A stretch of 39,275 nucleotides of DNA from an uncultured Verrucomicrobiota bacterium. Lineage in GTDB: Bacteria; Verrucomicrobiota; Kiritimatiellia; RFP12; UBA1067. Below the pieces are notes generated by a model. That model was not told where the DNA came from. It saw only the letters and a program-made list of their open reading frames with translations, and made no database searches. Within the stretch, counting starts at the first letter, position 1, and each line of letters opens with the position of its first letter. A program made the position numbers and the translations under genes. Of the stretch, positions 3,508 to 39,275 are shown one piece after another. Where the stretch lies: the NCBI GenBank assembly GCA_945613785.1, contig CALZAJ010000002.1:1-39275 (forward strand), written 5' to 3'.

Positions 3508-4107
3508 ATGAAAACCAAGCCGCTCTTTATCGTCCTGTCCGCGCCTTCGGGCTGCGGAAAGTCCACATTGATTGACATGCTCCTCCAGGAGTACTCCGAC
3601 ATCTGCTACTCCATCAGCTGCACGACGCGTGATCCGCGCGGCGAAGAGGAGGATGGTCTCGACTATCATTTCAAGACGAAGGAACGGTTCGAGGAGCTTA
3701 TCAAGGAAGACGCCTTCATCGAATACGCGAAGGTGCACGACAACTACTACGGCACGCTGAAGGCGCCGATCCAGGAGGTGCTCGCCGAGGGGAACTCGAT
3801 GATCCTCGACATCGACGTCCAGGGAGCGGCGAAGGTCCGCGAGTACGTTCGCAATCTCCCCAACACCGATCCGATGAAGATCGGCTATGTCGACATCTTC
3901 ATCAATCCGCCGTCGATGGAAGAGCTCCGCCGTCGTCTCGAAGGACGCGGTACGGACGCCCCGGAGGTGATCGAGAAGCGCCTGGCCAATGCCGAAGGTG
4001 AGATGTCCCACGCCGCGGAATACATGTATCAGGTGACGAACGACGATCTCGCTATCGCCTACAAGCGTCTCTGCGACCTCGTCGACGCCTTGAGCGGAAG
4101 GATGTAA
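3508..4107 (+). CDS. gmk: Guanylate kinase
   Basis: P-loop LSAPSGCGKSTL, then TTRDPRGEEEDGLDYHF and YYGT. The ~200 aa length is typical. Confidence 0.93.
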   Translation: MKTKPLFIVLSAPSGCGKSTLIDMLLQEYSDICYSISCTTRDPRGEEEDGLDYHFKTKERFEELIKEDAFIEYAKVHDNYYGTLKAPIQEVLAEGNSMILDIDVQGAAKVREYVRNLPNTDPMKIGYVDIFINPPSMEELRRRLEGRGTDAPEVIEKRLANAEGEMSHAAEYMYQVTNDDLAIAYKRLCDLVDALSGRM

Positions 4108-9402: not shown

Positions 9403-9432
9403 TTGCGGCATTCTCGTACAAGGAATGTCGCT

Positions 9433-12400
9433 ATGATTTCTAAGATCCTCTCCGTTCTCGCTGTTCTGCCGCTCGCGTCCGCTTTGGCCGGTGTTCTGGA
9501 CTTGACCGGTTCGCTTGAGTATCTCGGGAATCCCGCCGCCAGCCGTTGGCCGACGAGCGCGAAGTCACGTCACGTGCAGGATCTTCAGCCGCATCGGGGT
9601 AAGATCTACACCTCCGGCGGCGAGTGGGGCAACAATACGGGTCCGTGTCCGTGCTTCGCGGTCGATCCCTACTCCGGCGCCTTCGTGAACGAATTTGATG
9701 CCGGTACGGACGCGATCTACGAGTTCAAGGAGTTCTCCGACGGACGCCTCTACACGAGCGCCGTCGATCCCCATGAGAACGCGGCAAACATAGGACACAC
9801 TTTCCGTCGCGGCGCGACGGGCACCTGGTACGCCTACCGTAACTGCCACGGCGGCAATCTCTCGGACCTTGGATCGTCGGGTTATCCGATCCACAACTGG
9901 GACATGGTGGAGTACGGGGACAAGGTCTTCGTCTGCGGCTACGGCATCAGCGGATCGACCAACCGTTGTGAGACCAAGATGTTCAACGCCACGCCGACGC
10001 TGACGTCCAGCAGCCGTAAGGTAGCCGCGGCCTCCTGGACCGATTCCAGCGGCGGAAAGTACAATGCGCCGTACGGCTACTCGCTCTACCGTCGCTTCTG
10101 TGCCTTCCTGCCGTTCGATGACGACCTCTTCTGCGTGACGACGCAGCCGACGCTCAAGAACGACCGTCAGACCTGGAACGAATGGGAGGAATGGCGGTGG
10201 GACGCGTCGCAGAAGCGCTTCAACTGCCAGACCAACACTTGGACGTACATCGCGCCGGGCGTGACGGATTCGATGATGGACATCTTCTCCTACTCGGACG
10301 GCTTGGAGACGCTCCAGCTCTGGCATCCGACGAAGTTCAAGAATCGCGTCCTCTACATCGTCGGCGGACACAACTACAACATCACGCCCATCGCCGCCTA
10401 CAGCGCCGTCAACGAGAACCACACGATCAAGGCGACACGCCTCGACCTCGGCGCAACGTCCGTGAAGCCGTTCGACATCTATGCGACTGCGGACGCCGTC
10501 TATCTCGTCGCCGCGCAGGCCGGCACGACGACGTCGACCGTCACCAACAGCGTCTGGAAGTCGACGGACGGCGTCGCCTTCACGCCGCTCTTCACCTTTA
10601 CCTCGACACGCCAGGCCTCCGCACTCTGCTATTATGACGGCGCGTTCTATTTCGGCATGGGCGCGAACGACTACACGAAGACCTGCTGGCCGAAGGTGAC
10701 GGGAACGGACGTCTCGGGCCGCATCTACCGCGTCCGCCTGCCGCAGGAGGAGAAGCCCTCGGTCGTCGCCGAAACGAATCAGCTCGCGACGGTCGAAGGC
10801 GGACAAGGTACGGTGCGCTTCCGTCTCGCCGCGCCGCCGAGTTCCGCGGTGACGCTCCAGGTGCGTGCGACAGGTGATGCCGCACTGCTCGTCGAGACGA
10901 CAGAGCTGACGTTCTCGTCCGAGGATTGGAACTGCTGGAAGCCGGTCACCTATCGTGTCGCTCAGGACGACGAGCAGGTGGCGCACCAGGTGTCGGCGCT
11001 GGTCTGCGGTTCGGAAGAGGCGTCGGTCACGTCGGCCTCCGTGAGACTGACGATTGAGGACGACGACGCGGATCGGGACGAAGAGTCGACCGATCCCGAT
11101 CCGGGTACGAATCCTGACCCGGGACCTAGTCCGGGCACGGACCCTGAACCGCCGACGACTTCGGTGAACTACTGGATTGCCGCGGAGGGATCGGACGGCC
11201 TTGCGTCGACGGCCGGCAACTGGTCCGCCGGCGTGCCGACGGCAGCGAGCGACATTGTCATCAGTCCGACGAATTCTTCGGTCACGCTCATCTGGGATGC
11301 CGCGGCGCCGCAGACGATCAACTCGTATCGTCAGTACGGACTCACCAATGAAGTCCGCACGACATTCTCAACGGAATTCCCCGTGCTGACGGTGACGGGC
11401 GACATGATCGTCGCGGACGGCGTCCTCACGCATCCGCGCGGTGCGGCAAACGTGAGCGCGAACGTCTCGCGTCTGAAGCTGTCCGTCGGTGGCGACTTCC
11501 TCCTCGGGACAAATGCGACGGTGAACTTGAAGGGCAAGGGACTCGCCGGCGGACAGAAGCCGACGGGTTCGACGGCGGGCAGCCATGCGGCGTCGTGCGA
11601 CGGCTATGCGAAGGTGTACGGCAACGTCTATCGTCCTGAGCATCCGGGTTCGGGCTCGAACGATTCCAACATGTGGGGCGGCGGTGCGTTGTGGCTTGAG
11701 GTCGCGGGCGCGGCGACGATTGACGGCACGATTACGGTCCGTCCGGAGGAGAAGGACGACATCAAGCAGCCCGCGGCGGGTTCGGTCTATGTGAAGGCCG
11801 CATCGTGTGCGGGTTCGGGTCACATCCTCGCGGATTATGCGGCGACGAGTTACTACAAAGGCGGCGCGGGCTCGGGCGGACGCGTCGCGATCGAGCTGAC
11901 GGAGGCGGCGACCCTCGGACTCGCGGAGAGCCACATCAGCGTCCATGGCATCAATGCCGGCGGCGCCAATGGTGGCGGCGGAACGATCTTCGTGAAGACC
12001 GCAGACGCGACGATGCCGAACGGTACGCTCATTCTCGATGACACGCGGGCGAAGTCCTATGGTGCGCGCTGGCACAAGCCGACGGCGGTGACGGCGATTC
12101 CGTCCGGCGAGACCTGGACCTTCGATGCGATCAAGATCAGGAACTACGGCGTGCTGGCGGTTCCGGCGGGCACGAAGCTCGTGTTGCCGAAGGGCGTCGC
12201 ATCCGTGACGGCGAGTTCGCAGCGTCTCGGCGGCATTCTCTATCAGGGAGGCGAGATCGACTTCGGCGAGGGACCGTATGAGTTCGCCCAGCCGTGGATC
12301 TTTCAGGCGAACAAGCCGTACACGTTCAACGGAAACGTGACGGTGAAGGCGGGCGGTGCGCTGGGCTGTCTGCAGTTCATGGGCTCGAACGATCTCTCGG

Positions 12401-13650
12401 ACTTCACGAAGTGCGATGTCATCGTCAACGGCGATCTCACGGTTGAGAAGGGCGGCTACATCTGGGCGGAAAGTGCGGGACCCGACCTGAACATCGACCG
12501 TACGACGAGTGCGTATCACGGCGGACAGACCGGTGTTCTCACGTATGCCGCGGTCTATGATTCGATTCTCGATCCGTCGCTCCCGGGCTGGGGCATGGCG
12601 ACGGGCGACCGTGCGACCTCGCAGCCCGGCGGCGGCGTTCTGAAGCTCACGGTCAACGGCGCGCTCACGGTCGATGGCACGGTGACGGCGTACGCGAACA
12701 AGAATTCAAACAATTCGGAAGGTGCGGGCGGAACGATCAACATCCGGGCGAAGACGCTTGCGGGCGAGGGTTCGATCATGGCGGACTCCTACAAGTTCAC
12801 CTCGCAGCAGTACGCGGGCGGTGGCGGACGCATCGCGGTGCGTCTGTCGGAACAGGCGGTCGGGACGGACGGCATTTTCGCGCGCATCACGGCGAAGGGC
12901 GCGACGGTCGTGACGAGTGGCGGCTACAAGCCGAATCACAGTTCGTCCGCGGGCACGGTCTATCTGCAGGGCAAGGATGACGCCGAAGGCGCGGGTACGA
13001 TTCGCGTGTGTAATGACGGCAACGCGCAATCGGTCGATCCGTACACGCCGTTCCCGTCGAAGGGGAACGGCGCGGAGGCAGTCGATGCGCTCAAGAACGC
13101 TTCGCTCTTCGTCGGCAGCTGCGCGAAGGTAAAGCTCTTCGAGGCGGTTGAGGTTCAGGCGTTGGCGTTCGACGCGACGGGCCGCCTCGATCTCAACGGA
13201 CAGACGCTGACGGTGGCGTCCGCGACGGTGAACGGCGAGACGCTCGCGGCGGGTACCTACAGGGCGGACGCATCGCGCACGTGGCTGGTCGACTCTTCGA
13301 CGGAGGCGGTCGGTCGGCTCGTCGTTGTCGGCGGGACGGCGCCAGGACTCGACCCTGAAGCGGACACACCGATTGTGTCGGGCAGTTCGGTCGGTGTGGT
13401 GACGTCCGGCGGAGGGACGGCGGGTGAGAGCGTGTTTTCCGTTTCGATTGGCAATGTGAAGGCGGGACTGTACTACACGACGTTCATCGCCGAGAATCTG
13501 GGTGACACGTTCAAGGCGTCGGACGGCAGCGTACGGGCGACGGCGGACGGTGGACTTGCCTTTGAACTCCCGACTGGCGGCAAGGCGTCACTCTTCGTGA
13601 AGGTCGTCGTTTCGAGTGCGCCTTATTCGGCGGGAGCGGAATTGAAATAA
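9433..13650 (+). CDS. Large secreted surface protein (1405 aa): beta-propeller-like N-domain, Calx-beta/Ig-like module, Pro/Asp linker, glycine-turn parallel beta-helix
   Basis: Signal peptide MISKILSVLAVLPLASALAG. Calx-like segment at 10759-11073 (TVRFRLAAPP...TFSSEDWNCWKPVTYRVAQDD...LTIEDDD). Linker DPDPGTNPDPGPSPGTDPEPP. Reiterated GGx[ILV] strands include GGRVAIEL, GGTIFVK, GGVLKLTV, GGTINIRA and GGRIAVRL. Confidence 0.85.
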   Translation: MISKILSVLAVLPLASALAGVLDLTGSLEYLGNPAASRWPTSAKSRHVQDLQPHRGKIYTSGGEWGNNTGPCPCFAVDPYSGAFVNEFDAGTDAIYEFKEFSDGRLYTSAVDPHENAANIGHTFRRGATGTWYAYRNCHGGNLSDLGSSGYPIHNWDMVEYGDKVFVCGYGISGSTNRCETKMFNATPTLTSSSRKVAAASWTDSSGGKYNAPYGYSLYRRFCAFLPFDDDLFCVTTQPTLKNDRQTWNEWEEWRWDASQKRFNCQTNTWTYIAPGVTDSMMDIFSYSDGLETLQLWHPTKFKNRVLYIVGGHNYNITPIAAYSAVNENHTIKATRLDLGATSVKPFDIYATADAVYLVAAQAGTTTSTVTNSVWKSTDGVAFTPLFTFTSTRQASALCYYDGAFYFGMGANDYTKTCWPKVTGTDVSGRIYRVRLPQEEKPSVVAETNQLATVEGGQGTVRFRLAAPPSSAVTLQVRATGDAALLVETTELTFSSEDWNCWKPVTYRVAQDDEQVAHQVSALVCGSEEASVTSASVRLTIEDDDADRDEESTDPDPGTNPDPGPSPGTDPEPPTTSVNYWIAAEGSDGLASTAGNWSAGVPTAASDIVISPTNSSVTLIWDAAAPQTINSYRQYGLTNEVRTTFSTEFPVLTVTGDMIVADGVLTHPRGAANVSANVSRLKLSVGGDFLLGTNATVNLKGKGLAGGQKPTGSTAGSHAASCDGYAKVYGNVYRPEHPGSGSNDSNMWGGGALWLEVAGAATIDGTITVRPEEKDDIKQPAAGSVYVKAASCAGSGHILADYAATSYYKGGAGSGGRVAIELTEAATLGLAESHISVHGINAGGANGGGGTIFVKTADATMPNGTLILDDTRAKSYGARWHKPTAVTAIPSGETWTFDAIKIRNYGVLAVPAGTKLVLPKGVASVTASSQRLGGILYQGGEIDFGEGPYEFAQPWIFQANKPYTFNGNVTVKAGGALGCLQFMGSNDLSDFTKCDVIVNGDLTVEKGGYIWAESAGPDLNIDRTTSAYHGGQTGVLTYAAVYDSILDPSLPGWGMATGDRATSQPGGGVLKLTVNGALTVDGTVTAYANKNSNNSEGAGGTINIRAKTLAGEGSIMADSYKFTSQQYAGGGGRIAVRLSEQAVGTDGIFARITAKGATVVTSGGYKPNHSSSAGTVYLQGKDDAEGAGTIRVCNDGNAQSVDPYTPFPSKGNGAEAVDALKNASLFVGSCAKVKLFEAVEVQALAFDATGRLDLNGQTLTVASATVNGETLAAGTYRADASRTWLVDSSTEAVGRLVVVGGTAPGLDPEADTPIVSGSSVGVVTSGGGTAGESVFSVSIGNVKAGLYYTTFIAENLGDTFKASDGSVRATADGGLAFELPTGGKASLFVKVVVSSAPYSAGAELK

Positions 13651-15617: not shown

Positions 15618-15679
15618 GGTGTCCCCGGAGGGGGGGGCTTCTTAAACGGCGCCCCAACGGGGCCGCCGCCGCGCCGAAT

Positions 15680-15802
15680 CGCCTCTCCAGCCCTTGTCCT
15701 GGTCGTCCTGGTTGTCCTGGAGGTCCTGTACAACGGCCGCTCAACGCGGCTTCGTTAAGAAGGCGTTGAAAGGCCCTCAAATCGCGGCTTCTCAAACGGC
15801 GC
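15680..15802. repeat. 123-bp repeat element, copy 1 (4 x 9-bp GTCCTGG iterons + tandem CGTTnAnAAGG site)
   Basis: Base-for-base identical to 17349-17471 by manual alignment. Confidence 0.95.
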
Positions 15803-15824
15803 CCTCTTCCCGCGGCCCTCTCTT

Positions 15825-15833
15825 TGCTATAAT
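15825..15833 (+). promoter_or_regulatory. Extended -10 promoter element TGCTATAAT for the histidine kinase gene
   Basis: Matches the TGnTATAAT consensus. It ends 9 nt before the ATG at 15843 with no Shine-Dalgarno sequence, and lies 23 nt downstream of repeat copy 1. Confidence 0.45.
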
Positions 15834-15842
15834 ATCGCCATT

Positions 15843-17336
15843 ATGATCGCCACCATTCTGCTTGCCGCCGCGTTGACGAATGTCACCGGCATTGTGACCT
15901 TTGAGCGCGCGACGTTGCCGTTTGTCTTCATGACCGACAACCAGGGGACGCATTGGCGCGTGGCGATGGAATCGGGAGAACGTCCGAATGTCAAGGTTGG
16001 CGATCTCATCTCGGCGAAAGGCGAGCCGGAAGATTCGATCAAGCGACGCCTCAGGGCCCGCGAGGTATCGGTCACGGGAAACGATCTCGCCAAACTTCCG
16101 CCGCCGCGTGTCGCGACCATTACCGAGATCTTCGAAGAGGTCATGCCCTACGGCGGCACCCCGTTGTATGGTAGCGTGATCGTCACGGAAGGCCTGGTGC
16201 GCGACATCAACCGTCGCCAGATGACAACGCAGCTATTGGTCGGTGAGGGCGACTACAACTTGCAGGTCGAGGTCCCGTGGGTGCTGGAGGAGGCCTTACC
16301 CTCCGAGTTGATCCAAGGTGCCACGGTCCGCGTGACCGGCAACCTCGCCTACACCTCGATTGAGAATCTCGAAGAGGGCGTCTTCGGACGCGCCGAGAAC
16401 ATCGAACTTATTCCCGTCTCAGGAAAGAACATTGAGGTCGTCAAGCGCGCACCATTCTGGACCGCCGAGCGACTGATGCTCGTCTTGGGCGGCATCGGTG
16501 TGTTCACGCTCATCATCCTCGCGTGGGCGGTCACTTTGCGGCGGATGGTCGCCAAGCGGACGCGCGAACTCGGGGAGTCGATTCGCGAGCGTGAGACCGA
16601 ACGAATCGAAGCGGATGCCGCGCGGCGGGAACGCCTGCGACTGGCGGCCGACCTCCATGATGGCTTCCAACAGTATCTCGCTGGCGCCATGTTCCGTCTG
16701 AAGGCTGCGATTAACTATCTGCCGAAAGAGGCAGAGAAGAGCCGTGATCAGCTCGCGAAGGTACAAGACGCCCTGCAGCATACCCAGAACGGACTGCGTA
16801 CGACCCTCTGGGCGATGAATGAGGAAAGCGAAGGACCGGAGTCCCTGATGGATCTCTTCCGCTTTACGGCCCGTCGCATGGGCCACTGGGATGGCGTTGT
16901 CGACATCGCCGCGGAAGGGGAAGAGAAGAAAGTTGCCAGAAAGAGCGCAGGAACGCTTCTTTTGATCATGCAGGAAGCCGTCGGCAATGCCCTGAAGCAC
17001 GGTAAGGCCCAACATGTGCGCGTACGTCTCTCTTTTAACGAAAAATGGCTAAATATGTCCATTATTGACGACGGACAGGGCTTTGCGCCTGAATTTGCAA
17101 ATCGCCCCGTCGGCGCGGGGTCTCCATCGGGCGAATCAAAAACCGCACAAAATTCGCGGTATTCAGCCGATTTTGGCACGATTTCGCTCAACACCTCGGT
17201 CTTGAGTAAGGCCGGTCATTATGGCATGGCCTCGATGGAGCGCCGCACCAATGAACTGGGCGGCAAGCTAGAGGTTTGGTCCAAGGGTGGCCTGGGCACC
17301 AAGTTGGTCTTCACGATCCCCTATACTGTGGCCTAG
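15843..17336 (+). CDS. Membrane sensor histidine kinase, HisKA_3 (NarX/LiaS-type) with a periplasmic double OB-like domain; no adjacent response regulator
   Basis: Two TM segments flank a periplasmic region of roughly 190 aa. H-box LAADLHDGFQQYL, N-box QEAVGNALKHG, DDGQGF, and GHYGMASMERR...GGKLEVWSKGGLGTKLVFTIP. Confidence 0.88.
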   Translation: MIATILLAAALTNVTGIVTFERATLPFVFMTDNQGTHWRVAMESGERPNVKVGDLISAKGEPEDSIKRRLRAREVSVTGNDLAKLPPPRVATITEIFEEVMPYGGTPLYGSVIVTEGLVRDINRRQMTTQLLVGEGDYNLQVEVPWVLEEALPSELIQGATVRVTGNLAYTSIENLEEGVFGRAENIELIPVSGKNIEVVKRAPFWTAERLMLVLGGIGVFTLIILAWAVTLRRMVAKRTRELGESIRERETERIEADAARRERLRLAADLHDGFQQYLAGAMFRLKAAINYLPKEAEKSRDQLAKVQDALQHTQNGLRTTLWAMNEESEGPESLMDLFRFTARRMGHWDGVVDIAAEGEEKKVARKSAGTLLLIMQEAVGNALKHGKAQHVRVRLSFNEKWLNMSIIDDGQGFAPEFANRPVGAGSPSGESKTAQNSRYSADFGTISLNTSVLSKAGHYGMASMERRTNELGGKLEVWSKGGLGTKLVFTIPYTVA

Positions 17337-17348
17337 CGGCTTCTCAAC

Positions 17349-17471
17349 CGCCTCTCCAGCCCTTGTCCTGGTCGTCCTGGTTGTCCTGGAGGTCCTGTAC
17401 AACGGCCGCTCAACGCGGCTTCGTTAAGAAGGCGTTGAAAGGCCCTCAAATCGCGGCTTCTCAAACGGCGC
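17349..17471. repeat. 123-bp repeat element, copy 2
   Basis: Identical to 15680-15802. It begins 13 nt after the kinase stop codon. Confidence 0.95.
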
Positions 17472-17502
17472 TCCAACGCAATTTCGTTGGATCGTCGTTC
17501 AA

Positions 17503-17537
17503 CAGGACCCCCAGGACCCCCAGGACCCCCAGGACAG
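17503..17537. repeat. Inverted iteron array, 4 x CAGGAC at exact 9-bp spacing (CAGGACCCC x3 + CAGGACA)
   Basis: CAGGAC starts at 17503, 17512, 17521 and 17530. It is the reverse complement of the GTCCTG iterons at 17365, 17374, 17383 and 17392. Confidence 0.85.
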
Positions 17538-17658
17538 CGGCCACAGGGCCGCCGCCGCGCCGAACCGCCTCACTGTCTTCCCCCAAATGGGGAGAAATCG
17601 ACAGCCAATCTTGCGCTTACCTTCCCCCGCATGGGTGAAATTTTTTTTCATTTCCCCC

Positions 17659-17687
17659 TTGCGGGGGACAACAAATTTTGGTATAGT
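17659..17687 (+). promoter_or_regulatory. Promoter: -35 TTGCGG, 17-nt spacer, extended -10 TGGTATAGT
   Basis: TTGCGG at 17659-17664 and TGGTATAGT at 17679-17687. The leader of roughly 30 nt carries a GAAGAGGAG Shine-Dalgarno sequence before the ATG at 17723. Confidence 0.45.
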
Positions 17688-20316: not shown

Positions 20317-20553
20317 AGAAAGACCCGGGACCAGCTTATCAATCCGCTAGAAAAAGCAGGGAGAAGCCGCATTTGCCTTTCAGTCAATGGGAAGATACTG
20401 AAAGCCGACTGCGGCTTCGGACTCGACCGCTCGAAAAGCTCAGATGCACTTTTGCTCAGATGCTCAGATGCCGAGGTCAGTCAAGACCGCGCAGCGGTGT
20501 TGACTGACCGAGTACAGTGGAATCTCGTTTTCGTTTTCTAATGCCAATAAATT

Positions 20554-21049: not shown

Positions 21050-21205
21050 GTCCTGGTGTCTTGGCGTCCTGTCTAACCGCTCTCCAATGCAACTGCATTG
21101 GCGGGTGGTTGGTCGCTCCTTGTACAAGGGCTGTTCAACCGTCTGCCAACGCTGTCGACAACTCTGTTAGTAAGTCGTTGAAAAGAGGGTTGATAACACC
21201 TCGGC
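21050..21205. repeat. Diverged third copy of the repeat element (degenerate iterons, CTAACCGCTCTCCA, TGTACAAGGGCTGTTCAACCG, TGTTAGTAAGT-CGTTGAAAAGA)
   Basis: Manual alignment to copies 1 and 2. The order of blocks from AACCGC(C)TCTCCA onward is conserved, with many substitutions and two local palindromes (21084-21101 and 21118-21129). Confidence 0.5.
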
Positions 21206-32043: not shown

Positions 32044-35000
32044 ATGACCATCAAGAACAAACTCCTGAAACTATTCACCCTCGCCGCGGGAATCACCGCA
32101 GGCAGCGCGGCGTGTGCCGCCGGAGGTGACATATTCGAGATTCGGCCCTGTACCCAGGAAGGTCTGGCCAGAGCTGCGTATGCGACCATCGACTCCCCGC
32201 TGACTTCAGGCGAATCGGTCTACTTCAAGATCCGCCTCATCCAGCGCACGATCGGCGCCGCGAATTCCGTGTGGAAAATCGAGCATATCGGTGCCAGTTC
32301 CCAGGTGGTCGATGACGCGCTTTATCCGTTGCAGGTCGGCATCTACGTGTCAGGCCAGCTCCGTTACGCCTCGTTGATCGATGCGACGTCCGATGCCACG
32401 ACGGGCTTTACGGATCTCGTCTTCGAGTACAAGACGCGTGCGGGCGACTTCGCGCTCCCGATCGTTCTCGCGACGACTGACGGTCCCGCTTCGGATTCGG
32501 ATACCTCGCTCGAGTATCTGCTCAACCCGGCGCGTACCGACAAATGGAGGATCGCGAACGACGCCGGCAACACCTGCAAGTTCTATTACTGGACGCCTGA
32601 CCGCCCGGCCTCTTCCCCTGATGGCACGCGCATGACGGACTACTCGCTTGCGGACTGCGGCTTCTATGTGCAGACCATCGGCTTCGACAAGGAGTGGGAG
32701 TCCGAGGACTTCTGGCGCACAGTTCACCAGAACTCGTCCATCACAGTCGGCGGTACCCCGTCCCTTGAGGCTGCCGCGGCCCCTGAAGACGCGGTCACGC
32801 TCTATGTCTGGTCGATGGATGACAACGTGGTCAAGGTCCGTGGCGGCACGGTCCAGAACATGATCACCGGTTACGATGAGAGCAACAATCCCATCCGCAC
32901 GTCCACGCAGGTCGGTACGGTCACCCTCGCGGGTGGCCAGCTGAAGGCCGACTTCGCAATTGAGGGCGTGACGGAAGGCGACAGCACGAAGCTCGTCCTC
33001 AGCCCGTGGGATCACTACACCTTCAAGACGGCGACGGGTGCCCGTATCGTCGACTACATCACCGTTCCCGTCAAGTGTATCGAGCCGATGCCCCCGACGG
33101 CCATTGTCGAGGCCGACCGCCTCGTTGCCTATGCTGACGGCAACTACATGACCTATGGTGCGCTCCTTTCTGTCTATCTCTCCCAGGCCTATCAAGATGG
33201 CCCCGTCGATGTCAAGATCAAGCCCTCCTTCGCGGATGGTGCGGCGGCTGACTGGGGTGATTACATCCGCTTCTCCACGACGCAGGACGAGGTGACGGCG
33301 CTGCCGCCCGGCGGTCCCGGCAACGAGATCACGGTCCGTATCCCGGCCGGCTCCACGGCCAAGCAGCAGATCTACGTCTTCTGTCTCCGCGGCGATTCGC
33401 ACACCACGGGTACGTCCCGCATGGTGTTCACGCCTGAGGTCCTTGACGCAACGGCGGCGGCGGTCATCCACGAGGTGACGGCGGCCGGTATGGAAATCCG
33501 TGCGGCGGCTCCGGTCATCACGACGCCGGCCGAGGGCGCGAAGATCTCCGGCATCTGCGGTGACGAGATGCCCTTCATCGTCGCGGTGAGCGACACGTTC
33601 GCCGATTCCTCCTTCCAGGACACGACGGGCGCTTCCGGTTATAAGATCTACATCAAGTACCGCGGTTCCGACGCCTACACGCTGCTCGACGGCTTCTATT
33701 ACGTCGGCGAGGGCAATGCGCTTTACCGCATGAAGGATGACGGCACGCAGACGGGCACGTACTTCGCCTCCACCGATCTTCCGATCATCAAGTACCCGGG
33801 TTCCGGCGAAGGTCTCGCCAGCGAGGTCTACGTCGTTTCCCCGCTGAGCGGCAAGAAGAGCGAGGTCGTCCACTTCGTCGCTGACATCAAGGAGGCCCGC
33901 ACCTCCAACGTCGTCACGACCGACGACAAGAACGACATCTACTACGAAGGCGAGAAGGCGACCTTCCAGATCTCCATCTCCGAGAAGAACGACACGGGCA
34001 GCACGATCTACGCGTTCTTGCTCGCCAGCGACAACGCCGAGGCGGCCATGTTCAGCGCCACGCCGAACTTCGTGGTCTGCAACGACACCGATCTGACGAA
34101 GACGTCCGGTCTCGCGATCAACAACTACCAGGACAAGACGTCCGCCAGCAAGATCATGTTCCTCGACGGACTCAGCGAGGACGCGGGCGGTCTCAGCCTC
34201 ACCTTCCAGGTCGTGCTCTGCAGCACCAAGAACTACGATCCGGCCAAGCGTCTCGCGGGCTATGATTCGAACTACCTGAACATTACGGTCTACAACCTCG
34301 AGCCGCAGATCACGCGTATTGAGATGAACGGCTTCGAGTCCGAGAGCGATGGCGCTGTGTTCCCGAACAAGGTCCCGAAGGGCATGACCCAGGAGTTCAA
34401 GGCAATCGTTTCCGATAAGGGCAAGTACGACCTGACCAACACTGCCGAACCGTTCCAGTGCAAGTGGACGGCGACGCTCGCGGGTGTCGGCGCGATCAAA
34501 AACGACGTGATCGCCGGCGATCCTTCCAAGAATCCGTTCTCCTATGACTTCCCGCGTGCGGGTGACTGGACGATCAAGCTCCAGGTCAAGGATAAGGACA
34601 TGGAGGACTGGTCCGACGTCACCTACTCGGTCGGCGTCACCGTGCTCGATAACCCGCAGGTCGAAGTGATCGCTCCTGAGGCGCTCGTCGAGAACGACCA
34701 CTCGGGCAAGATCCAGGTCCAGCTCAGCTACTGGGATCCGCTCTTCACGGGCAAGCTCAAGGTCCGTGTCACGGTCGAGGAGTACAGCCCGGGCCGTGCG
34801 AACCCTGGTGAACTCAAGCTGGACAGCAACTACTCGACCGGCGTCAACACGTATGAGGTCGAGATCGGCGATGCGCTTCCTGTCGATCTCATGATCGAGG
34901 CGATGGATGGTACGGAAGTCTCCTCGCTCTACGGCTTCGTCATCAAGACCGAGGTCATCTCGACCGACGTCCTGCCGACGTCCCACACGCCGGCGAACGA

Positions 35001-38000
35001 GTACTATGTTGAAGATTCTGCGCGTGTCCTCATCAACAACGTCGAGCCCGTCTGCATGGTCAGCCCGGCGGAGAACACGAACCGCTATGAAGTCGCGGGC
35101 GGCGTGGCGAAGAACCACGGCATCCGTTGGCAGGTCAAGAGCGACGTCGACGCCGATTTCGCGGGCATTCCGACGTTCAAGGGCATCAAGGTCAGCTTCT
35201 CGGGCTGCGCGAACGCGACCGAGTTCTTCGTGAACGAGTCCACGAGCGACACGTTCTATCCTGACTTCGGCTCCTCGCAGGGTGACCAGGACGTCGTCCT
35301 CACGATCGAGGATAAGGATGGCGGCTACCTGACCTGGACCTGGCAGTTCACGGTCACGCCTTCGAAGTTCCTCACGACGGTCTCCACCGGTCCGTCCGGC
35401 GGCACGACGACTTCCGCGCTCTCCCAGAAGTACACGCTCTGCGATGGTATCGGCATGGGCCACACCTATGTCGCCGACGCGATCTTCTCCTCCGCGCAGA
35501 ACTTCCGCCTGAAGTGGAACTGCTCGAAGAACATCTACATGGACATCTACGGCTTCGGCTACAAGGTGGCCAGTCCGAACGACGACGGCACCCTCGATGG
35601 CATGGACATCGCCCTCGACCAGTACGGTTCGGCTTCTGCCGGCAGCACGGTCACGGATCCGTTCCACTACCCGATGGCCGACTTCAACCCGGACGACAAG
35701 GAAGAGGCCAAGAAGATCAAGGACTCTTACTTCTACTGCTGGATTCTCCACAGCGTCGGCGAGAGCGGCAATGGTGTCACGAGCTCGATTCTCGGCAACT
35801 CGATCGCCCCGGAACGTCCGGGCGTGGTCGGCACCGGTTCGGTGATGCTCCCGACGGAGAAGACCGAGGACGGCAGCTATCTCGACACGGTCGTCGAGGC
35901 CATCTTCGCGCAGGAATGGCTCCCCGCCGATAACCTCGGCGATATCAACCAGGACGGCGTCCCCGACGTCTTTGTCGTCAAGGATTGGAAGGGCGGCAAA
36001 CTCATCAACCTCGTCTACGGCACGGAAGACACCGAGTCCGACCTCAAGGCTTTGAATGCCAGCAACCCCGACGACGACTACTTGCCGGGCGTCTTTGAGC
36101 AGGATGATATGGTCGCGCTCGTCGAGAATAGCAAGAACAGCTACGCGCCCGTAGGCGTGCCGTTCAATACGCGCCTCGAGCTGCGCGGTCTCGACGACGG
36201 CCTGAACGCGACCGATCTTACCGCATCCGACGTCAGCTTCAGCGAGGATGAGCAGAAGGCCTGGGAGGCCTTCGCGAATGCGAACGGCCTCGATGCCGAT
36301 ACGCCGGATCTCGCGATCTGGAGCCCGGAACCGCGCAGCGCGCGCTACTCGCGCATGGACCCGACCCTCGACGATACCGACGGCGACCGCTTCCCCGACG
36401 GCTGGGAATACTACTTCTGGTATCAGGCGCATGTTTGGGCGCCCGCCGGCAAGAGCAAGCCGCGCCAAGGCCAGCAGTTCGCCTTCGAGCGTTTCCGTGT
36501 GTTCAATATTCTCGTGGGCGAGGAAATTCCGGCCGCGGAAGTTGAAAAGCGCTTCAACCCCTGCGATCCGCTGCCAGCTAAGGATTATGCCGACCATCCC
36601 GATTTCGACAACGACGGCCTTTCCGATCTTGAAGAATTGGTGCTTGGCACGAACCCCTGCCATTGGGATACCGACGGCGATCATATGTGCGACGGCTGGG
36701 AGGTCATGTACGCGCTCGACCCGCTCAACGGCAGCAAGAACGGCAACCCCGACGGCGATTTCATGGCCTTCTTCAATACCCTCGGCGTGCCTTGCTATGT
36801 CGACCCGAACGCGCCGATTCAGGATTCCGAAACGCCTGGCTTCGAGTTCCTCATCTGCAACCGCTTGCGTCCGATCATCGACTACGATCAGCTGTCCGGG
36901 ACGATTGTTCGCGATTTGACGACGATTGCGGTGCACTGCAAAGCGAAGGCCGATCCCGAAGACCCCGGAAAGGTTCTGCGCTACGGCCTGGGGCCGGATG
37001 TGGACGGTCCGCCCGCCAATGCCGAGCCCGAGGTGCTCAAGGATTGGGTGTGGAGCAATTTCATGGTCGAGGATATCTACAGGGTGGAGATCAAGCTTGT
37101 CGCGGGCGACAGGGTGAATATGTTCTTGCCCTACACCCTCATCCACGATCAGGTCCACACTGCTTTTGGCTACGATCCGCGCACCGCATGGTACAAGAAC
37201 GGCGAAGGCTATGTGGCCAGCCGCTGGGATCCGATGATAAATAAAGAGCTCATGCCCTTCGATACTACGGGTGTGGCGATCAATACTCGTCCCTACGAGA
37301 CGTACGACGAATACCTCGTCATGAAGTACCGCAGCGATTACAATATCATCTATTACCTCAAGGAACCCGGCTTCGACAACGGCAAACCTTGGGGCACGCT
37401 GCTGGCGAAAACGACGAACCCGAACGTAGTCTTCCCGACGGTTGAGGTAGAGGTGACCGAAACAACCGAGGAAGTCAGCGCCGACGGAACAACCACTAAT
37501 ACCATCGAGAACACGACCGTGCAGACCGTCGTCCAAACGAACGAGACGACGATTATCGCCCAGCGGCTCGCCGAGGCGCTTGCCGCTTCCGGCAGCTCCA
37601 GCACCGTTCAGACTGGACACGGCGCGGATACCGACGGCGACGGCGTGCCCGACGGCTGGGAACTCTACACCTACCGTTGCCCGAACGCTGCGCCGACCGT
37701 CGACGACGAAAAGCACCCGAAGAAGGAGATCGACTTTGACTACGACGCCGACAAGCTCAACTACGCCGACGAATTCGCCGGCACCGATTCCTGCAACGCC
37801 TACCGCAATTGCGCAACCATCTACGCCAACCACCCCGGCAATCTCAAAGGATGGTTCAACAAGTTCTTCCCCACCAACCCCGGTACATGGCTCGGATCGG
37901 CAATTGGCAACGACGACGGCAAAGATACCGACGGTGACGGTTTGACCGACTACGATGAGGGTCAGGCCTGGTGCGCCAATTTCTTCTATGAAGGGAAGAT

Positions 38001-39275
38001 GGTACTCGAAGCGCAAAGCAGCATCTTCTCGGCCGGCGCGAAAGCAATGGGCTTTATCTACGGCGAACCGCAGGATTCGATCACCTGCTGCGTGCGCGGC
38101 GGCGGCCTCAACCCGTGCACGGTCGATACCGACCAGGACTGGCTGCCAGACGCCTGGGAAGCGGCCCACGCCGGTTTGCCGGTGGATTTGGCGACGCGCC
38201 AAACCGTGGCGCCCGTTAACGGCGACAAGCTCGCCGACTTCGAGTTTGGCGACTCGACCTGGATTGCCGATGGTATCTATGGCGTTGAGGGTCTCACGGG
38301 CGTCTATATCGCCGGCGGCATGGACGGTACTTGGTCCGGCGATTACTGCACCGGCGATAGTATTTCGGTCGATGAATTGCTCGGGAAGGTCACGCGCGAT
38401 GTCGACTTTGACCACGACGGGCTTCAAAACTACCAGGAATACTTCGTGCAAGGCATGCGCCACTTCCGCTGGGACGAGATTTCCACCCCGCTTATGGGTC
38501 GCATCCTCGAAGAGGGCGATCGCGTGATGGGCAACCTCGTAACGGTGCATGAACAGCAGTTTGCCAACTTCACCCAGCACGATTTTTCCGACCCCGGTCA
38601 GCTGGCGGTCAACAGCGCGCTTGCGTGGGGCTCGAAGGAACTCGTGAAAACCATCACGGTCACGAACGGAACTTCCGTCACCTACGATTATATCGATCCG
38701 CTCAATCCCGCCGCGGGTCTGGTGACGAACATAACCTATTACACCGAGCGCAAGCGCATCTACGTGGGCGGCAATCAGCTGATCGACGATCGCATCGCCG
38801 GCAAGATCGCCAAAGCCTATTCGGCGCCGTGGTCGGACGCAGGCTTCCGCGCGCTCGGTTACATGTCCGCGCCCGCGCATGAATGGGATCGCTCCTTTAC
38901 GGCGTTACTTCTCAGCAATCCCACCTACCTCTTCCCGATTACCGGATCGCTGCTTGTCGACAAGGCGATGATAGGCTATGTTTCCACCGATCCGCGCATG
39001 CCCGATACCGATATGGACGGCATGGACGATTATTACGAGCTCTTCCACGGCCTCAACCCGTTGCTCGGCCAGACGACACCCGGCTACTGCGATTTGCTTT
39101 ACGATAAATACGGCGACATCATCGCGGGTACCTACTATGCCATAGGCTTCCCGCTGGTCGATTCGCGTCCGGTGTTTAACGCCTTCTTCAATGAATGGAC
39201 GCATCCGAACTTCGATCGCCGCTTGCCGTTGGGGTCTGGCGCGATCGGAACCATCGGTGCTCTCGCGCACGACTG
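32044..39275 (+). CDS. Second giant secreted protein (more than 2410 aa, 3' end outside the window): Ig/PKD-like modules plus thrombospondin-type-3-like Ca-binding repeats. Not present in the supplied ORF track.
   Basis: Hand translation of the frame (positions equal to 1 mod 3) from the ATG at 32044 met no stop in any stretch checked, including 38881-39275. Signal peptide MTIKNKLLKLFTLAAGITAGSAACAAG. PKD-like modules end in WTIKLQVKDKD and VVLTIEDKDGG. Seven or more D-x-D-x-DG..D(G)WE motifs are present, with a strong G/C bias at third codon positions. Confidence 0.88.
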   Translation, partial: MTIKNKLLKLFTLAAGITAGSAACAAGGDIFEIRPCTQEGLARAAYATIDSPLTSGESVYFKIRLIQRTIGAANSVWKIEHIGASSQVVDDALYPLQVGIYVSGQLRYASLIDATSDATTGFTDLVFEYKTRAGDFALPIVLATTDGPASDSDTSLEYLLNPARTDKWRIANDAGNTCKFYYWTPDRPASSPDGTRMTDYSLADCGFYVQTIGFDKEWESEDFWRTVHQNSSITVGGTPSLEAAAAPEDAVTLYVWSMDDNVVKVRGGTVQNMITGYDESNNPIRTSTQVGTVTLAGGQLKADFAIEGVTEGDSTKLVLSPWDHYTFKTATGARIVDYITVPVKCIEPMPPTAIVEADRLVAYADGNYMTYGALLSVYLSQAYQDGPVDVKIKPSFADGAAADWGDYIRFSTTQDEVTALPPGGPGNEITVRIPAGSTAKQQIYVFCLRGDSHTTGTSRMVFTPEVLDATAAAVIHEVTAAGMEIRAAAPVITTPAEGAKISGICGDEMPFIVAVSDTFADSSFQDTTGASGYKIYIKYRGSDAYTLLDGFYYVGEGNALYRMKDDGTQTGTYFASTDLPIIKYPGSGEGLASEVYVVSPLSGKKSEVVHFVADIKEARTSNVVTTDDKNDIYYEGEKATFQISISEKNDTGSTIYAFLLASDNAEAAMFSATPNFVVCNDTDLTKTSGLAINNYQDKTSASKIMFLDGLSEDAGGLSLTFQVVLCSTKNYDPAKRLAGYDSNYLNITVYNLEPQITRIEMNGFESESDGAVFPNKVPKGMTQEFKAIVSDKGKYDLTNTAEPFQCKWTATLAGVGAIKNDVIAGDPSKNPFSYDFPRAGDWTIKLQVKDKDMEDWSDVTYSVGVTVLDNPQVEVIAPEALVENDHSGKIQVQLSYWDPLFTGKLKVRVTVEEYSPGRANPGELKLDSNYSTGVNTYEVEIGDALPVDLMIEAMDGTEVSSLYGFVIKTEVISTDVLPTSHTPANEYYVEDSARVLINNVEPVCMVSPAENTNRYEVAGGVAKNHGIRWQVKSDVDADFAGIPTFKGIKVSFSGCANATEFFVNESTSDTFYPDFGSSQGDQDVVLTIEDKDGGYLTWTWQFTVTPSKFLTTVSTGPSGGTTTSALSQKYTLCDGIGMGHTYVADAIFSSAQNFRLKWNCSKNIYMDIYGFGYKVASPNDDGTLDGMDIALDQYGSASAGSTVTDPFHYPMADFNPDDKEEAKKIKDSYFYCWILHSVGESGNGVTSSILGNSIAPERPGVVGTGSVMLPTEKTEDGSYLDTVVEAIFAQEWLPADNLGDINQDGVPDVFVVKDWKGGKLINLVYGTEDTESDLKALNASNPDDDYLPGVFEQDDMVALVENSKNSYAPVGVPFNTRLELRGLDDGLNATDLTASDVSFSEDEQKAWEAFANANGLDADTPDLAIWSPEPRSARYSRMDPTLDDTDGDRFPDGWEYYFWYQAHVWAPAGKSKPRQGQQFAFERFRVFNILVGEEIPAAEVEKRFNPCDPLPAKDYADHPDFDNDGLSDLEELVLGTNPCHWDTDGDHMCDGWEVMYALDPLNGSKNGNPDGDFMAFFNTLGVPCYVDPNAPIQDSETPGFEFLICNRLRPIIDYDQLSGTIVRDLTTIAVHCKAKADPEDPGKVLRYGLGPDVDGPPANAEPEVLKDWVWSNFMVEDIYRVEIKLVAGDRVNMFLPYTLIHDQVHTAFGYDPRTAWYKNGEGYVASRWDPMINKELMPFDTTGVAINTRPYETYDEYLVMKYRSDYNIIYYLKEPGFDNGKPWGTLLAKTTNPNVVFPTVEVEVTETTEEVSADGTTTNTIENTTVQTVVQTNETTIIAQRLAEALAASGSSSTVQTGHGADTDGDGVPDGWELYTYRCPNAAPTVDDEKHPKKEIDFDYDADKLNYADEFAGTDSCNAYRNCATIYANHPGNLKGWFNKFFPTNPGTWLGSAIGNDDGKDTDGDGLTDYDEGQAWCANFFYEGKMVLEAQSSIFSAGAKAMGFIYGEPQDSITCCVRGGGLNPCTVDTDQDWLPDAWEAAHAGLPVDLATRQTVAPVNGDKLADFEFGDSTWIADGIYGVEGLTGVYIAGGMDGTWSGDYCTGDSISVDELLGKVTRDVDFDHDGLQNYQEYFVQGMRHFRWDEISTPLMGRILEEGDRVMGNLVTVHEQQFANFTQHDFSDPGQLAVNSALAWGSKELVKTITVTNGTSVTYDYIDPLNPAAGLVTNITYYTERKRIYVGGNQLIDDRIAGKIAKAYSAPWSDAGFRALGYMSAPAHEWDRSFTALLLSNPTYLFPITGSLLVDKAMIGYVSTDPRMPDTDMDGMDDYYELFHGLNPLLGQTTPGYCDLLYDKYGDIIAGTYYAIGFPLVDSRPVFNAFFNEWTHPNFDRRLPLGSGAIGTIGALAHD

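Follow-up and report, generated by a model that had tools for sequence, protein, structure and literature searches.

A perfect 123-bp direct repeat brackets the gene of an orphan histidine kinase in a 39,275-nucleotide stretch of DNA (hereafter the window), and this arrangement raises the question of whether the repeats carry the kinase gene as a mobile cassette or whether they settled around a gene that was already in place.

The 123-bp repeat pair and the hairpin unit

An exact search located the 123-mer twice on the forward strand of the window, at positions 15680-15802 (copy 1) and 17349-17471 (copy 2), without a single mismatch (123/123), and no match was obtained in 100 shuffled controls. 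The perfect repeat around the kinase gene that had been described in an earlier note on this DNA was thereby confirmed, as was the start of copy 2 at 13 nt past the kinase stop codon. The match can be extended to 126 nt (15677-15802 versus 17346-17471), of which 125 are identical. Two side motifs that the earlier note had regarded as shuffled between the two places are likewise real, with its coordinates being off by 1 nt: GGCTTCTYAAACGGCGCYCCAACG is present at 15636-15659 and 17455-17478 (92% identical) and (ACR)GGGCCGCCGCCGCGCCGAAYCGCCTC at 15657-15685 and 17543-17571 (93% identical). Both 123-bp copies are partial copies, comprising unit positions of about 1-119, of an intergenic repeat unit of about 216 nt, and the view of a permuted tandem module held up, as related strains carry head-to-tail arrays of this unit at both places. 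Within the window and the strain contigs, BLAST mapping with a reference unit (L001, 11971-12186) placed all units, whether complete or partial, at this one locus, and the 39-kb window contains just two repeat copies.

The genetic composition of the locus can be read along the forward strand, on which all features described here are located. The leftmost array fragment (15636-15659) begins 18 nt past the CNNM-N stop codon and corresponds to unit positions 101-124 (GGCTTCTTAAACGGCGCCCCAACG). It is directly abutted by a unit tail fragment (15657-15686; positions about 189-216, ending in GGGCCGCCGCCGCGCCGAATCGCCTC), so that a small hairpin and the 3' arm of the unit are missing at this point. Copy 1 consists of the last 6 nt or so of one unit followed by unit positions 1-117, with the partial unit (positions 2-119) occupying 15687-15804, and includes a 9-nt-periodic 5' hairpin arm, GTCCTGG-TC-GTCCTGG-TT-GTCCTGG-AG-GTCCTG (15696-15728), that has no partner arm. 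Behind the kinase gene, the junction CGGCTTCTCAACCGCCTCT (17337-17355), which reads CGGCTTCTCAAACGGCGCC in the strain contigs L011, L012 and L014, represents a degenerate copy of unit positions of about 100-119 joined to unit position 1.

Copy 2 overlaps a complete repeat unit (positions 2-214; 17356-17568) that is organised as a long hairpin. The 5' arm, (GTCCTGGNN)x3 followed by GTCCTG (17365-17397), is separated from the 3' arm, CAGGAC(CCCCAGGAC)x3 (17503-17535), by a small internal stem-loop TCCAACG-CAATTT-CGTTGGA (17472-17491; unit positions of about 119-138) that occurs in full units only. The 7-nt cores of the 5' arm find their complement in the 3' arm, and the statement that inverted termini are missing had to be revised, as this 33-nt arm lies beyond copy 2 and its complement at 17365-17397 lies inside the repeat. 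The array ends with the unit tail (17543-17571; ..GGGCCGCCGCCGCGCCGAACCGCCTC), which is followed by unique sequence up to the ATG of the next gene at 17723. In the full unit of the window, (GTCCTGGNN)x4 pairs with (CCAGGACNN)x4 at z-scores of about -8 to -9; the predicted fold of 17356-17568 reaches -113 kcal/mol as RNA (z = -7.8) and -67.6 kcal/mol as DNA (z = -8.9), the predicted folds of all 16 full units range from -101 to -127 kcal/mol, and copy 1 alone yields a z-score of -0.6. The 2-nt spacers between the arm cores are mismatched in the window strain and paired in L001.

Searches beyond the locus returned little. The window yielded no relevant Rfam match, whether gathering scores or a threshold of E <= 1 were applied, no tRNA gene was found, and the unit had no BLASTN match among plasmids and phages. 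Scans with GGCTTCTYAAACGGCGCYCCAACG of the GTDB representative genomes, from which the species or the region is absent, and with an invariant 26-mer of metagenome contigs resulted in 0 matches each. A CRISPR array was rejected as an interpretation on the grounds that the arrays contain no spacers, and a collagen-like pseudogene was dismissed in view of the short length of the arrays, their pairing as inverted repeats and their location outside any long frame. A related 8-nt-periodic relic is present at 21050-21071.

A resident kinase gene within a strain-variable array

The bracketed gene (15843-17336) encodes an orphan histidine kinase of 497 amino acids with matches to the HisKA_3 (PF07730, E = 2.2e-12) and HATPase_c (PF02518, E = 9.6e-13) families. 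No cognate response regulator gene adjoins it in the window or in a sister species, and more distant kinase homologs (62-65% identical) are located directly 3' of a gene encoding a Response_reg+GerE protein. Exact look-ups returned no record of the window kinase or of the 843-aa protein. The ortholog in the sister species is 69% identical and lies in the conserved gene order tig-clpP-clpX-panD-CNNM-CNNM_N-kinase, in which the kinase ATG follows the upstream CNNM gene at a distance of 4 nt (TAGaaccATG) without an upstream repeat. Since the gene is syntenic in the sister species and directly follows the CNNM gene there, the comparison of gene orders identifies the kinase gene as a resident with colonised flanks, not as a mobile cassette. 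The idea of an excisable kinase gene also fails on its presence in 11/11 strain-level contigs.

Between copy 1 and the kinase gene lies a putative promoter module, CCTCTTCCCGCGGCCCTCTCTTTGCTATAATATCGCCATT (15805-15842), with an extended -10 region composed of TG at 15825-15826 and TATAAT at 15828-15833. With 9 nt between the -10 box and the kinase ATG, the mRNA is predicted to be leaderless or nearly so. A generic sigma-70 scan did not call the TGCTATAAT boxes because a -35 region is not present; the promoter activity of the box before the kinase gene is a prediction.

The locus was recovered from the same species in 11 metagenome contigs that are independent of one another, all of which show the kinase gene bracketed by the repeat. 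What varies between the strains is the number of repeat units and the presence of a four-helix-bundle (4HB) gene cassette, not the kinase gene; the comparison sequences are throughout short-read metagenome assemblies, in which chimeras across repeats of this size are possible. The CNNM and kinase genes lie 213-225 nt apart in three contigs (L008, L009 and L016) and in the window, and 1078-1512 nt apart in L014, L010, L011 and L001, where the spacer accommodates 1 to 3.5 extra units and a gene encoding a 227-aa protein. The array behind the kinase gene consists of one unit in most strains, 1.5 units in L001 and two in L011. Taken over the 11 contigs, head-to-tail units number from about 1 to 4.5 in the upstream array and from 1 to 2 in the downstream array, so that the locus represents a variable-number tandem repeat (VNTR). 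The array genes all begin directly after unit position 119 (..GGCTTCTCAAACGGCGCC|CTCTT..), and the right junctions lie at position 194 after the 4HB gene and at about position 100 after the kinase and the CNNM-N genes. In L011, L012 and L017 the 19-nt direct repeat CGGCTTCTCAAACGGCGCC flanks the promoter together with the kinase gene. L013 carries the 4HB cassette on the other side of the kinase gene, an order that must be viewed with suspicion, as this contig stops where it runs into a kinase-type junction again.

The two flanking copies are 93-97% identical in the 10 other strains, with longest exact runs of 42-74 nt, and the kinase genes of these strains differ from that of the window at 8-18 of 1494 nt (0.5-1.2%). 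The perfect identity over 123 bp is best read as the result of recent homogenisation in the window strain, in line with the gene conversion that the earlier note had considered. A CGCGGCTTCG variant of the pre-kinase copy of the window is otherwise found in post-kinase units only, and all four combinations of variant sites are seen among the units. Exchange between units by homologous recombination and gene conversion, presumably of the RecA type, is the most likely mechanism.

These data along with the 4HB genes described below make it probable, on balance, that the 216-nt unit belongs to the flanks of 4HB cassettes, colonised both sides of the kinase gene and then evolved as a VNTR with recent conversion in the window strain. 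According to this model, the full unit, a long hairpin with 9-nt-periodic GTCCTGG and CCAGGAC arms, would form part of the structure that flanks the 4HB gene cassettes. The module would have colonised both flanks of the resident kinase gene in a species that probably belongs to the gut Kiritimatiellia, thereby parting the gene from its upstream CNNM operon and bringing a TGCTATAAT box to a distance of 9 nt upstream of its ATG. The array would then have evolved in unit number, with recombination and conversion between units altering this number, adding or removing the 4HB cassette and keeping the copies alike, and in the window strain a recent conversion would have removed all differences over 123 bp between the copy before and the copy after the kinase gene. 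The notion of a mobile kinase cassette would thus be replaced by that of a resident orphan kinase gene which an invading repeat module cut from its ancestral operon and supplied with a new putative promoter, and the array around it would be a hot spot of strain variation in a gut bacterium that is common in livestock.

Four-helix-bundle genes and 9-nt-periodic arrays

The array gene of the conspecific strains encodes a 227-aa protein of the 23S_rRNA_IVP/four-helix-bundle type, i.e. a member of the 23S rRNA intervening sequence (IVS) protein family with an additional 'suffix' domain. It has its own TGCTATAAT box and is present or absent inside the array depending on the strain; its cassette shares with the promoter module of the kinase gene the CCTCTT start and the TTTGCTATAATA box. 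The protein scores 67.2 bits with TIGR04258 (cut-off 40) and 24.5 bits with TIGR02436 (cut-off 24), and it matches PF05635 weakly at E = 4.6e-5, which is under the cut-off of that profile. The best matches of its AlphaFold2 model are Xcc0516 (2gsc) and BT_0352 (2rld), and a search of PDB sequences with the 4HB profile gave nothing significant. The profile detected no relatives on IMG/VR viral contigs. A 4HB gene is absent from the window itself, which is why the cassette was invisible in the earlier note, and the link between the repeat unit and the 4HB gene is drawn from the conspecific contigs.

An association survey of 80 loci from several phyla, which were selected on the 4HB gene, revealed a dominant tandem period of 9 nt. 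In this set, 95 of 148 arrays lie at most 200 nt from a 4HB gene, and 66 of the 129 intergenic gaps adjoining 4HB genes contain an array compared with 5 of the 88 other gaps (p about 1e-13 by Fisher's test). No 9-nt-periodic arrays were present in 65 kb of control loci selected on the kinase. The same kind of array flanks the 4HB homologs P0038 and P0004 of other organisms, and in the P0038 organism 48-nt arms (3849-3896 and 4728-4775 of L019) enclose the ORF. As a TGGTATAAT box precedes the array in that organism, the arrays would be situated in the 5' and 3' untranslated regions and could pair around the ORF. On the tentative view set out below, the array core would follow the clade of the protein rather than the host, with GGGAC-type and CTAGA-type elements occurring within one MAG. 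A reciprocal metagenome scan with (GTCCTGGNN)x3GTCCTG delivered 120 loci, none of which lies beside a 4HB gene and 101 of which are located in long open frames that were read as collagen-like coding sequence with a 9-nt (Gly-X-Y) period; the pattern is not specific, and the scan is therefore uninformative on the association. The idea of one repeat per subunit of a pentamer was discarded, since the repeat counts are too broad (mode 4, median 5.7, range 2-27).

A general link between 4HB genes and such arrays appears to be undescribed in the searchable literature. We tentatively consider, as a possibility with less in its favour than against it, that 4HB genes together with 8-9-nt-periodic hairpin arrays constitute a widespread and undescribed class of self-contained selfish cassettes in Kiritimatiellia, Victivallales, Verrucomicrobia, Bacteroidales and Chlorobi, which would be IVS-like elements outside of rRNA genes. 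Their oligomeric protein may recognise its own periodic flanks, and the hairpin modules may spread to neighbouring intergenic regions and rewire residents such as the kinase gene. To our knowledge, the function of the abundant IVS-protein family has been unexplained since 1993, and the cross-phylum association of its genes with arrays offers a testable handle on this family and on the persistence and movement of IVS-type elements. For the same family, a link to CRISPR loci has also been reported (PMC3936711, PMC10910872).

Relation to known repeat systems and alternative explanations

The closest parallel is provided by the intervening sequences of 23S rRNA genes that carry an S23p or four-helix-bundle ORF, as in Leptospira and Coxiella, and whose stems are cut by RNase III (PMC4990558). 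Common to both systems are the ORF family (PF05635/TIGR02436, with fold matches to 2gsc and 2rld), the complementarity of the flanks, which yields a long and stable stem, the enclosure of the ORF by the arms in the P0038 organism, and the suspicion of a selfish or mobile element. In contrast to the rRNA elements (Ralph & McClelland 1993), the element at the present locus lies between protein-coding genes (CNNM, kinase and a secreted-protein gene) and not within an rRNA gene; no Rfam match to rRNA was obtained in the window. Moreover, its arms are 9-nt-periodic arrays, its units form tandem arrays of variable number, and its ORF encodes in addition a C-terminal 'suffix' domain and is equipped with a putative promoter of its own. 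In the window species both arms reside inside one unit, so that the hairpin forms within each unit and does not enclose the ORF, and the gene-bearing units have no 3' arm. A possible role of the hairpins is the insulation or processing of transcripts, as for the rRNA stems, and another is to serve as binding sites of the 4HB protein. The latter is conceivable by analogy with Avd, the accessory protein of diversity-generating retroelements (DGR), a nucleic-acid-associated pentamer that shares its four-helix-bundle fold family with the Xcc0516 pentamer and the cassette protein; unlike in DGR, no reverse transcriptase, template or variable repeat is located nearby. Bacterial VNTRs or minisatellites whose tandem repeats undergo concerted evolution through homogenising gene conversion resemble the array in their strain-dependent copy number and mosaic unit variants, and in that copies within a strain can resemble one another more than they do orthologous copies elsewhere, whereas the present unit is long (216 nt) and strongly palindromic, has a second-level 9-nt periodicity and hosts complete genes.

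An alternative that we regard as unlikely assumes integron-like, site-specific cassettes, in which a recombinase encoded elsewhere would use the core GGCTTCTCAAACGGCGCC (unit positions of about 101-119) to insert circular promoter-plus-gene cassettes into an attC-like hairpin array. The attC sites of the chromosomal integron of Vibrio cholerae have a size of about 123-126 bp, and such arrays, like the present one, consist of genes in alternation with repeats of about 120 nt that are highly similar to one another and form hairpins, and they vary in gene content among strains, with junctions at fixed repeat positions. The uniform left junctions after position 119 and the fixed right junctions, the 19-nt core repeat around the promoter and kinase gene in three contigs, and the cassette on the other side of the kinase gene in L013 are compatible with this explanation, although the order in L013 may reflect an assembly loop. 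It is opposed by the absence of integrase (IntI) or recombinase domains from the large ORFs of the 39-kb window and from the called genes of the strain contigs of about 20 kb; the earlier note was also right that the window encodes no transposase. The junctions follow GGCGCC instead of a GTTRRRY-type core, the cassettes appear to have promoters of their own with a CCTCTT...TTTGCTATAATA extended -10 box, gene-free units lie head to tail, and the bracketed kinase gene is ancestral at its position and was thus not inserted as a cassette. Insertions or deletions of one cassette plus one unit are, moreover, expected from plain homologous recombination between 118-nt repeats. An integron in the strict sense was rejected, as neither IntI or attI nor promoterless cassettes at a GTTRRRY core were found.

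Recombination among resident units is also preferred to a dispersed REP- or MITE-like selfish element with many genomic copies and an incidental position around the kinase gene, an explanation that we hold to be improbable. The unit is palindromic, non-coding and intergenic, many short-read contigs break exactly within it, and the relic mentioned above points in the same direction. However, the window harbours two copies only, the conspecific contigs with the unit all represent the same locus, the units are arranged head to tail, neither target-site duplications nor a RAYT or transposase gene were found, and the arrays of other species specifically adjoin 4HB genes.

Equally doubtful is the view that the repeat works in cis at the RNA level, for instance as a leader, as a stabiliser of the 3' end or as a site for RNase III, and was duplicated through shared post-transcriptional control of the kinase gene and the downstream secreted-protein gene. 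The very stable predicted fold of the full unit would be in line with such a role, as would the untranslated arrays of the P0038 organism with their possible pairing around the ORF, which resembles rRNA IVS stems (PMC4990558). Copy 1, by contrast, lies upstream of the predicted kinase promoter without a 3' arm and without a notable fold, and no Rfam family was detected even at E <= 1. The arms of the full units display no covariation and hence no compensatory changes, with spacer dinucleotides varying on one arm only. The 61 inverted repeats analysed for strand asymmetry of G.U pairs showed no sense excess (144 sense versus 198 antisense), and an RNA-level role of the hairpins is consequently left without positive support.

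The notion that one copy, or the perfect identity of the two, is an assembly artefact is scarcely credible. Repeats of this size are difficult for short-read assemblers, three of the sampled contigs stop within the present one, the longest contig is shorter than 5 kb in about three quarters of the collection blocks with the neighbouring gene, and an assembler consensus effect is possible in principle for an identity that is perfect in this one sequence only. Both copies recur, however, at the same positions in 10 other contigs from different samples and, judged from the contig names, from different assemblers (mostly MEGAHIT and at least one other, for L013), and the junctions on either side of a copy are unique to that copy, which argues that the kinase bracket is not an assembly duplication. 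A practical consequence concerns short-read metagenome assemblies, in which breaks occur systematically at 4HB genes and the genes beside them, and more than 7,700 relatives of the IVS-protein family were found, mostly on contigs of 1-3 kb.

The 123-bp repeat and its hairpin unit

An exact search of the 39,275-nt window with the 123-mer returned exactly two sites without any mismatch, at 15680-15802 (copy 1) and 17349-17471 (copy 2), which confirms the perfect direct repeat around a kinase gene (123/123) reported in an earlier note. None of 100 shuffled controls contained a match to the 123-mer, ungapped extension of the repeat match yielded 126 nt with 125 identical positions, and no third copy is present in the window; the repeat is no artefact. 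The 497-aa ORF between the two copies (15843-17336) contains the domains HisKA_3 and HATPase_c. Neither Rfam families nor tRNA genes were found across the window. The two short side motifs that had been described as shuffled do exist, as the repeat families D2 and D5, although the coordinates assigned to them were off by 1 nt.

The 123-bp repeat is part of a larger hairpin unit, the sequence of which continues downstream of the kinase gene. The complete unit located there (17356-17568) has arms that the earlier note had overlooked: a 5' arm of four GTCCTGG-NN repeats (17365-17397) pairs with a 3' arm of the composition CAGGAC(NNCCAGGAC)x3 (17503-17535), and the interior of about 105 nt contains smaller stem-loops. 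The unit folds much more stably than shuffled controls, with -113 kcal/mol as RNA (z = -7.8) and with -67.6 kcal/mol as DNA (z = -8.9), and the whole 386-nt spacer yields z = -8.5. On the pre-kinase side only unit positions 1 to approximately 119 are present, after two short pieces of the 3' part of the unit, and no unusual fold was detected upstream of the kinase gene (z = -0.6).

Strain-variable arrays around a resident kinase gene

CNNM proteins identical in sequence to those encoded upstream of the kinase gene were detected on many ENA and Logan metagenome contigs, several of which are named gut metagenome in their records; the MUNK18 records are from faeces of pigs and poultry. Eleven contigs extend across the locus, and since their kinase genes differ from that of the window at only 8-18 of 1494 nt, they belong to the same species. 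Units were mapped with positions 11971-12186 of contig L001 as the reference. In the window and in L008, L009 and L016, the CNNM-to-kinase spacer measures 213-225 nt and consists of two fragments followed by unit positions 2-119. It extends over 1078-1512 nt in L014, L010, L011 and L001; these strains have as many as two more full units, along with further partial ones, and also a gene for a 227-aa protein of the four-helix-bundle (4HB) type. A 4HB gene is absent from the window strain. The post-kinase array usually consists of a single full unit; L001 has 1.5 and L011 two. These tandem arrays bear out the earlier reading of the repeat as a permuted tandem module.

Every array gene starts directly after unit position 119 (..GGCTTCTCAAACGGCGCC/CTCTT.., the slash marking the junction) and is preceded by TTTGCTATAATA, with the end of this box 5-8 nt before the ATG. 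The unit restarts at position 194 after the 227-aa gene, and a copy of positions ~100-119 followed by position 1 is found after the kinase gene. The short contigs L003, L004 and L007 stop within the first unit and L002 just before it, and for the CNNM-N protein about three quarters of the collection blocks have a longest contig below 5 kb; such breaks and short contigs are the usual effect of a repeat on short-read assembly. Contig L013 (12359-14452) shows the order kinase, 4HB and an identical second 4HB gene, and ends 35 nt into a kinase-type junction. Either the whole block has been duplicated in tandem, or the assembly graph may have looped through the 118-nt repeat; because of the latter possibility this order was not used as evidence. 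A 1415-aa ORF without a Pfam domain, located between panD and CNNM (9403-13650), was called as 1530 aa in L001-L003 and is missing in strains L008-L017, where panD lies directly beside CNNM; it is a second strain-variable insertion near the array.

In ten other strains, the pre- and post-kinase copies share 93-97% identity over 100-154 nt, with longest exact runs of 42-74 nt. The duplication thus predates the strains, whereas the perfect match is specific to the window strain, in agreement with the recent conversion proposed in the earlier note. The upstream copy of the window carries CGCGGCTTCG, which elsewhere occurs in post-kinase units only (L009, L010, L011); this suggests that the downstream copy has converted the upstream one. 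All four combinations of variant sites such as GGCCGC/GGTCGC and CGATCGC/CGATGAC are represented among the units, a pattern that frequent exchange would produce. Strains differ by indels of complete units or of a cassette together with a unit, the product expected if 118-nt direct repeats undergo homologous recombination. Neither the window nor the strain contigs encode a recombinase.

The emphasis previously placed on an excisable kinase gene was not sustained, as the gene is resident at the same position in a sister species. The kinase family is frequent in Kiritimatiellia (53-69% identity), and homologs with 62-65% identity follow a Response_reg+GerE regulator in a normal two-component operon. 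The kinase of the closest other species is 69% identical and colinear over its full length, except for a 19-aa insert in the window protein. This insert, SPSGESKTAQNSRYSADFG, defined relative to that ortholog, occupies residues ~427-445 (window ~17121-17177) in the ATP-lid region of the HATPase domain. Both species have the order tig-clpP-clpX-panD-CNNM-CNNM_N-kinase, and in the closest other species the CNNM_N stop codon is separated from the kinase ATG by 4 nt (TAGaaccATG), with no upstream repeat before the kinase gene. The shared gene order and the 4-nt junction indicate that the kinase gene already stood here as an orphan, and that the repeat module, including the TGCTATAAT box, entered the 4-nt spacer in the lineage of the window species. 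This box (TG at 15825-6, TATAAT at 15828-33, ATG 9 nt further) is, as judged from its sequence, a putative promoter with leaderless translation of the kinase; if so, the upstream hairpin would lie outside the transcript in the window species.

On balance, we consider it rather probable that the feature consists of a hairpin module, tied to 4HB gene cassettes and arranged as a strain-variable tandem array, which has come to occupy the regions on either side of a resident orphan kinase gene.

Four-helix-bundle cassettes and arrays in other organisms

The 227-aa protein belongs to the 'suffix' domain group of the 4HB proteins of the 23S rRNA intervening-sequence (IVS) family, with 67 bits to TIGR04258 (cut-off 40), 24.5 to TIGR02436 (cut-off 24) and a weak match to PF05635. 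Its AlphaFold2 model (pLDDT 87.7) resembles most closely Xcc0516 (2gsc) and BT_0352 (2rld), with target-normalised TM values of ~0.8. The 4HB-suffix family is very large and yielded more than 7,700 matches at E <= 1e-10 among 8,000 candidates scored, and the named members among the matches listed belong to Kiritimatiellia and Victivallales. Most of the best 120 relatives of the 4HB-suffix protein among the matches listed are located on contigs of ~1-3 kb, which is consistent with systematic flanking by assembly-breaking repeats.

The closest documented analogue is the rRNA IVS, in which an ORF, of the same family as the 227-aa protein, lies between terminal inverted repeats with a ~28-bp stem cut by RNase III, and for which a mobile or selfish nature has been suspected for a long time (PMC4990558). 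Genes for 23S_rRNA_IVP have also been reported in cas loci (PMC3936711, PMC10910872) and within rRNA insertions of CPR bacteria (bioRxiv 10.1101/2024.02.27.582315). Here, in contrast, the hairpin arms revealed no compensatory changes, and 61 inverted repeats showed no sense-strand excess of G.U pairs (144 sense versus 198 antisense). Roles at the DNA level are just as conceivable; among others, the hairpins may serve as a recombination substrate or as protein-binding iterons, or may insulate the cassette against neighbouring transcription.

Two homologs from other organisms are likewise flanked by arrays. The gene of P0038 (58% identical) has 48-nt inverted arms of 9-nt-periodic GGGAC / GTCCY repeats on both sides and a TGGTATAAT box upstream of the 5' arm. 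The P0038 element was seen in two unrelated left-hand neighbourhoods (L019 versus L020, ~3560-4010), the homology of which begins ~30 nt upstream of the TGGTATAAT box; this limit marks either the boundary of the element or a breakpoint of rearrangement at the array. Between the two versions, entire 9-nt repeats and an additional array block have been inserted or deleted. On either side of the gene of P0004 (66% identical) lies a direct repeat of a ~700-nt palindromic module, which comprises 8-nt-periodic GACACCAG / GTCCTGGT arrays and a TTTGCTATAAT box 8 nt before the ATG.

A profile search with one genome per species provided 80 4HB loci (586 kb) from Kiritimatiellia, Victivallales, Verrucomicrobia, Bacteroidales/Prevotella and Chlorobi, none more than 60% identical, so that the window species is not represented among them. 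Period 9 was by far the most frequent tandem period. Of 148 period-9 arrays, 95 are no more than 200 nt away from the gene, and with a limit of 400 nt one or more arrays were counted at 54 of the 80 loci. On the basis of a crude gene model, an array is present in 66 of 129 gaps adjoining the gene versus 5 of 88 other intergenic gaps (odds ratio 17, p ~1e-13), and kinase-selected loci (65 kb) contained no period-9 arrays. The arrays often form inverted pairs (hairpins), either on a single side of the gene or on both, as in locus L043 (1900-1983/1986-2060, gene, 2777-2839/2845-2913).

The array core differs by lineage (GGGAC, AGGGAT, GCGAC, CTAGA, CCGGA, TCAGAATAC, CATAAGTCC and others) and tracks the protein clade, with a mean protein identity of 71.6% within the same core class versus 51.3% between classes. 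The CTAGA-type proteins of Kiritimatiellia are 64-78% identical to one another and at most 48% identical to GGGAC-type proteins of the same host class, and both types occur in one MAG. This tracking shows joint inheritance of the gene and its arrays as a single element; binding of the protein to the array does not follow from it. As to its kind, we group the feature with IVS-type selfish cassettes and recombining tandem repeats. A literature search that covered few subscription journals found no description of periodic arrays beside 4HB genes, which does not prove novelty.

Further arrays, palindromes and reading frames

A solitary 8-nt-periodic array, GTCCTGGTGTCTTGGCGTCCTG, is located in the intergenic region before a 3434-aa gene (21050-21071; also L008 16074-16095 and L009 16024-16045). 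Over 22 nt it shares 95% identity with the arms of the giant palindromic P0004 module, and it may have been left behind by a second module of related type. A second short 8-nt-periodic array, GCTCAGAT x4.2 (20438-20471), is non-coding and followed by a GGTCAGTCAA...TTGACTGACC hairpin; in conspecific contigs it occurs at two separate intergenic sites (L008 596-629 and 15462-15495).

The plus-strand frame open from 31897 to the window end (39275), with a likely start near 32044 (MTIKNKLLKLF...), encodes repeated thrombospondin-type-3-like DTDGDG.PDGWE motifs (repeat family D1), and the 2176-aa minus-strand ORF (32350-38880) is probably a shadow ORF. Three TTCCCCC-N5-GGGGRA palindromes (17578-17670) lie just 5' of the TGGTATAGT box of the 843-aa secreted-protein gene. 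In the window as a whole, 15 matches to this motif were counted versus 1.5 expected, the best of them all at 17578-17670, and the palindromes may be a regulator binding site. A similar palindrome pair, TTCCCCCGCAAGGGGGAA, is present upstream of a gene in the P0004 organism (L115 3290-3346).
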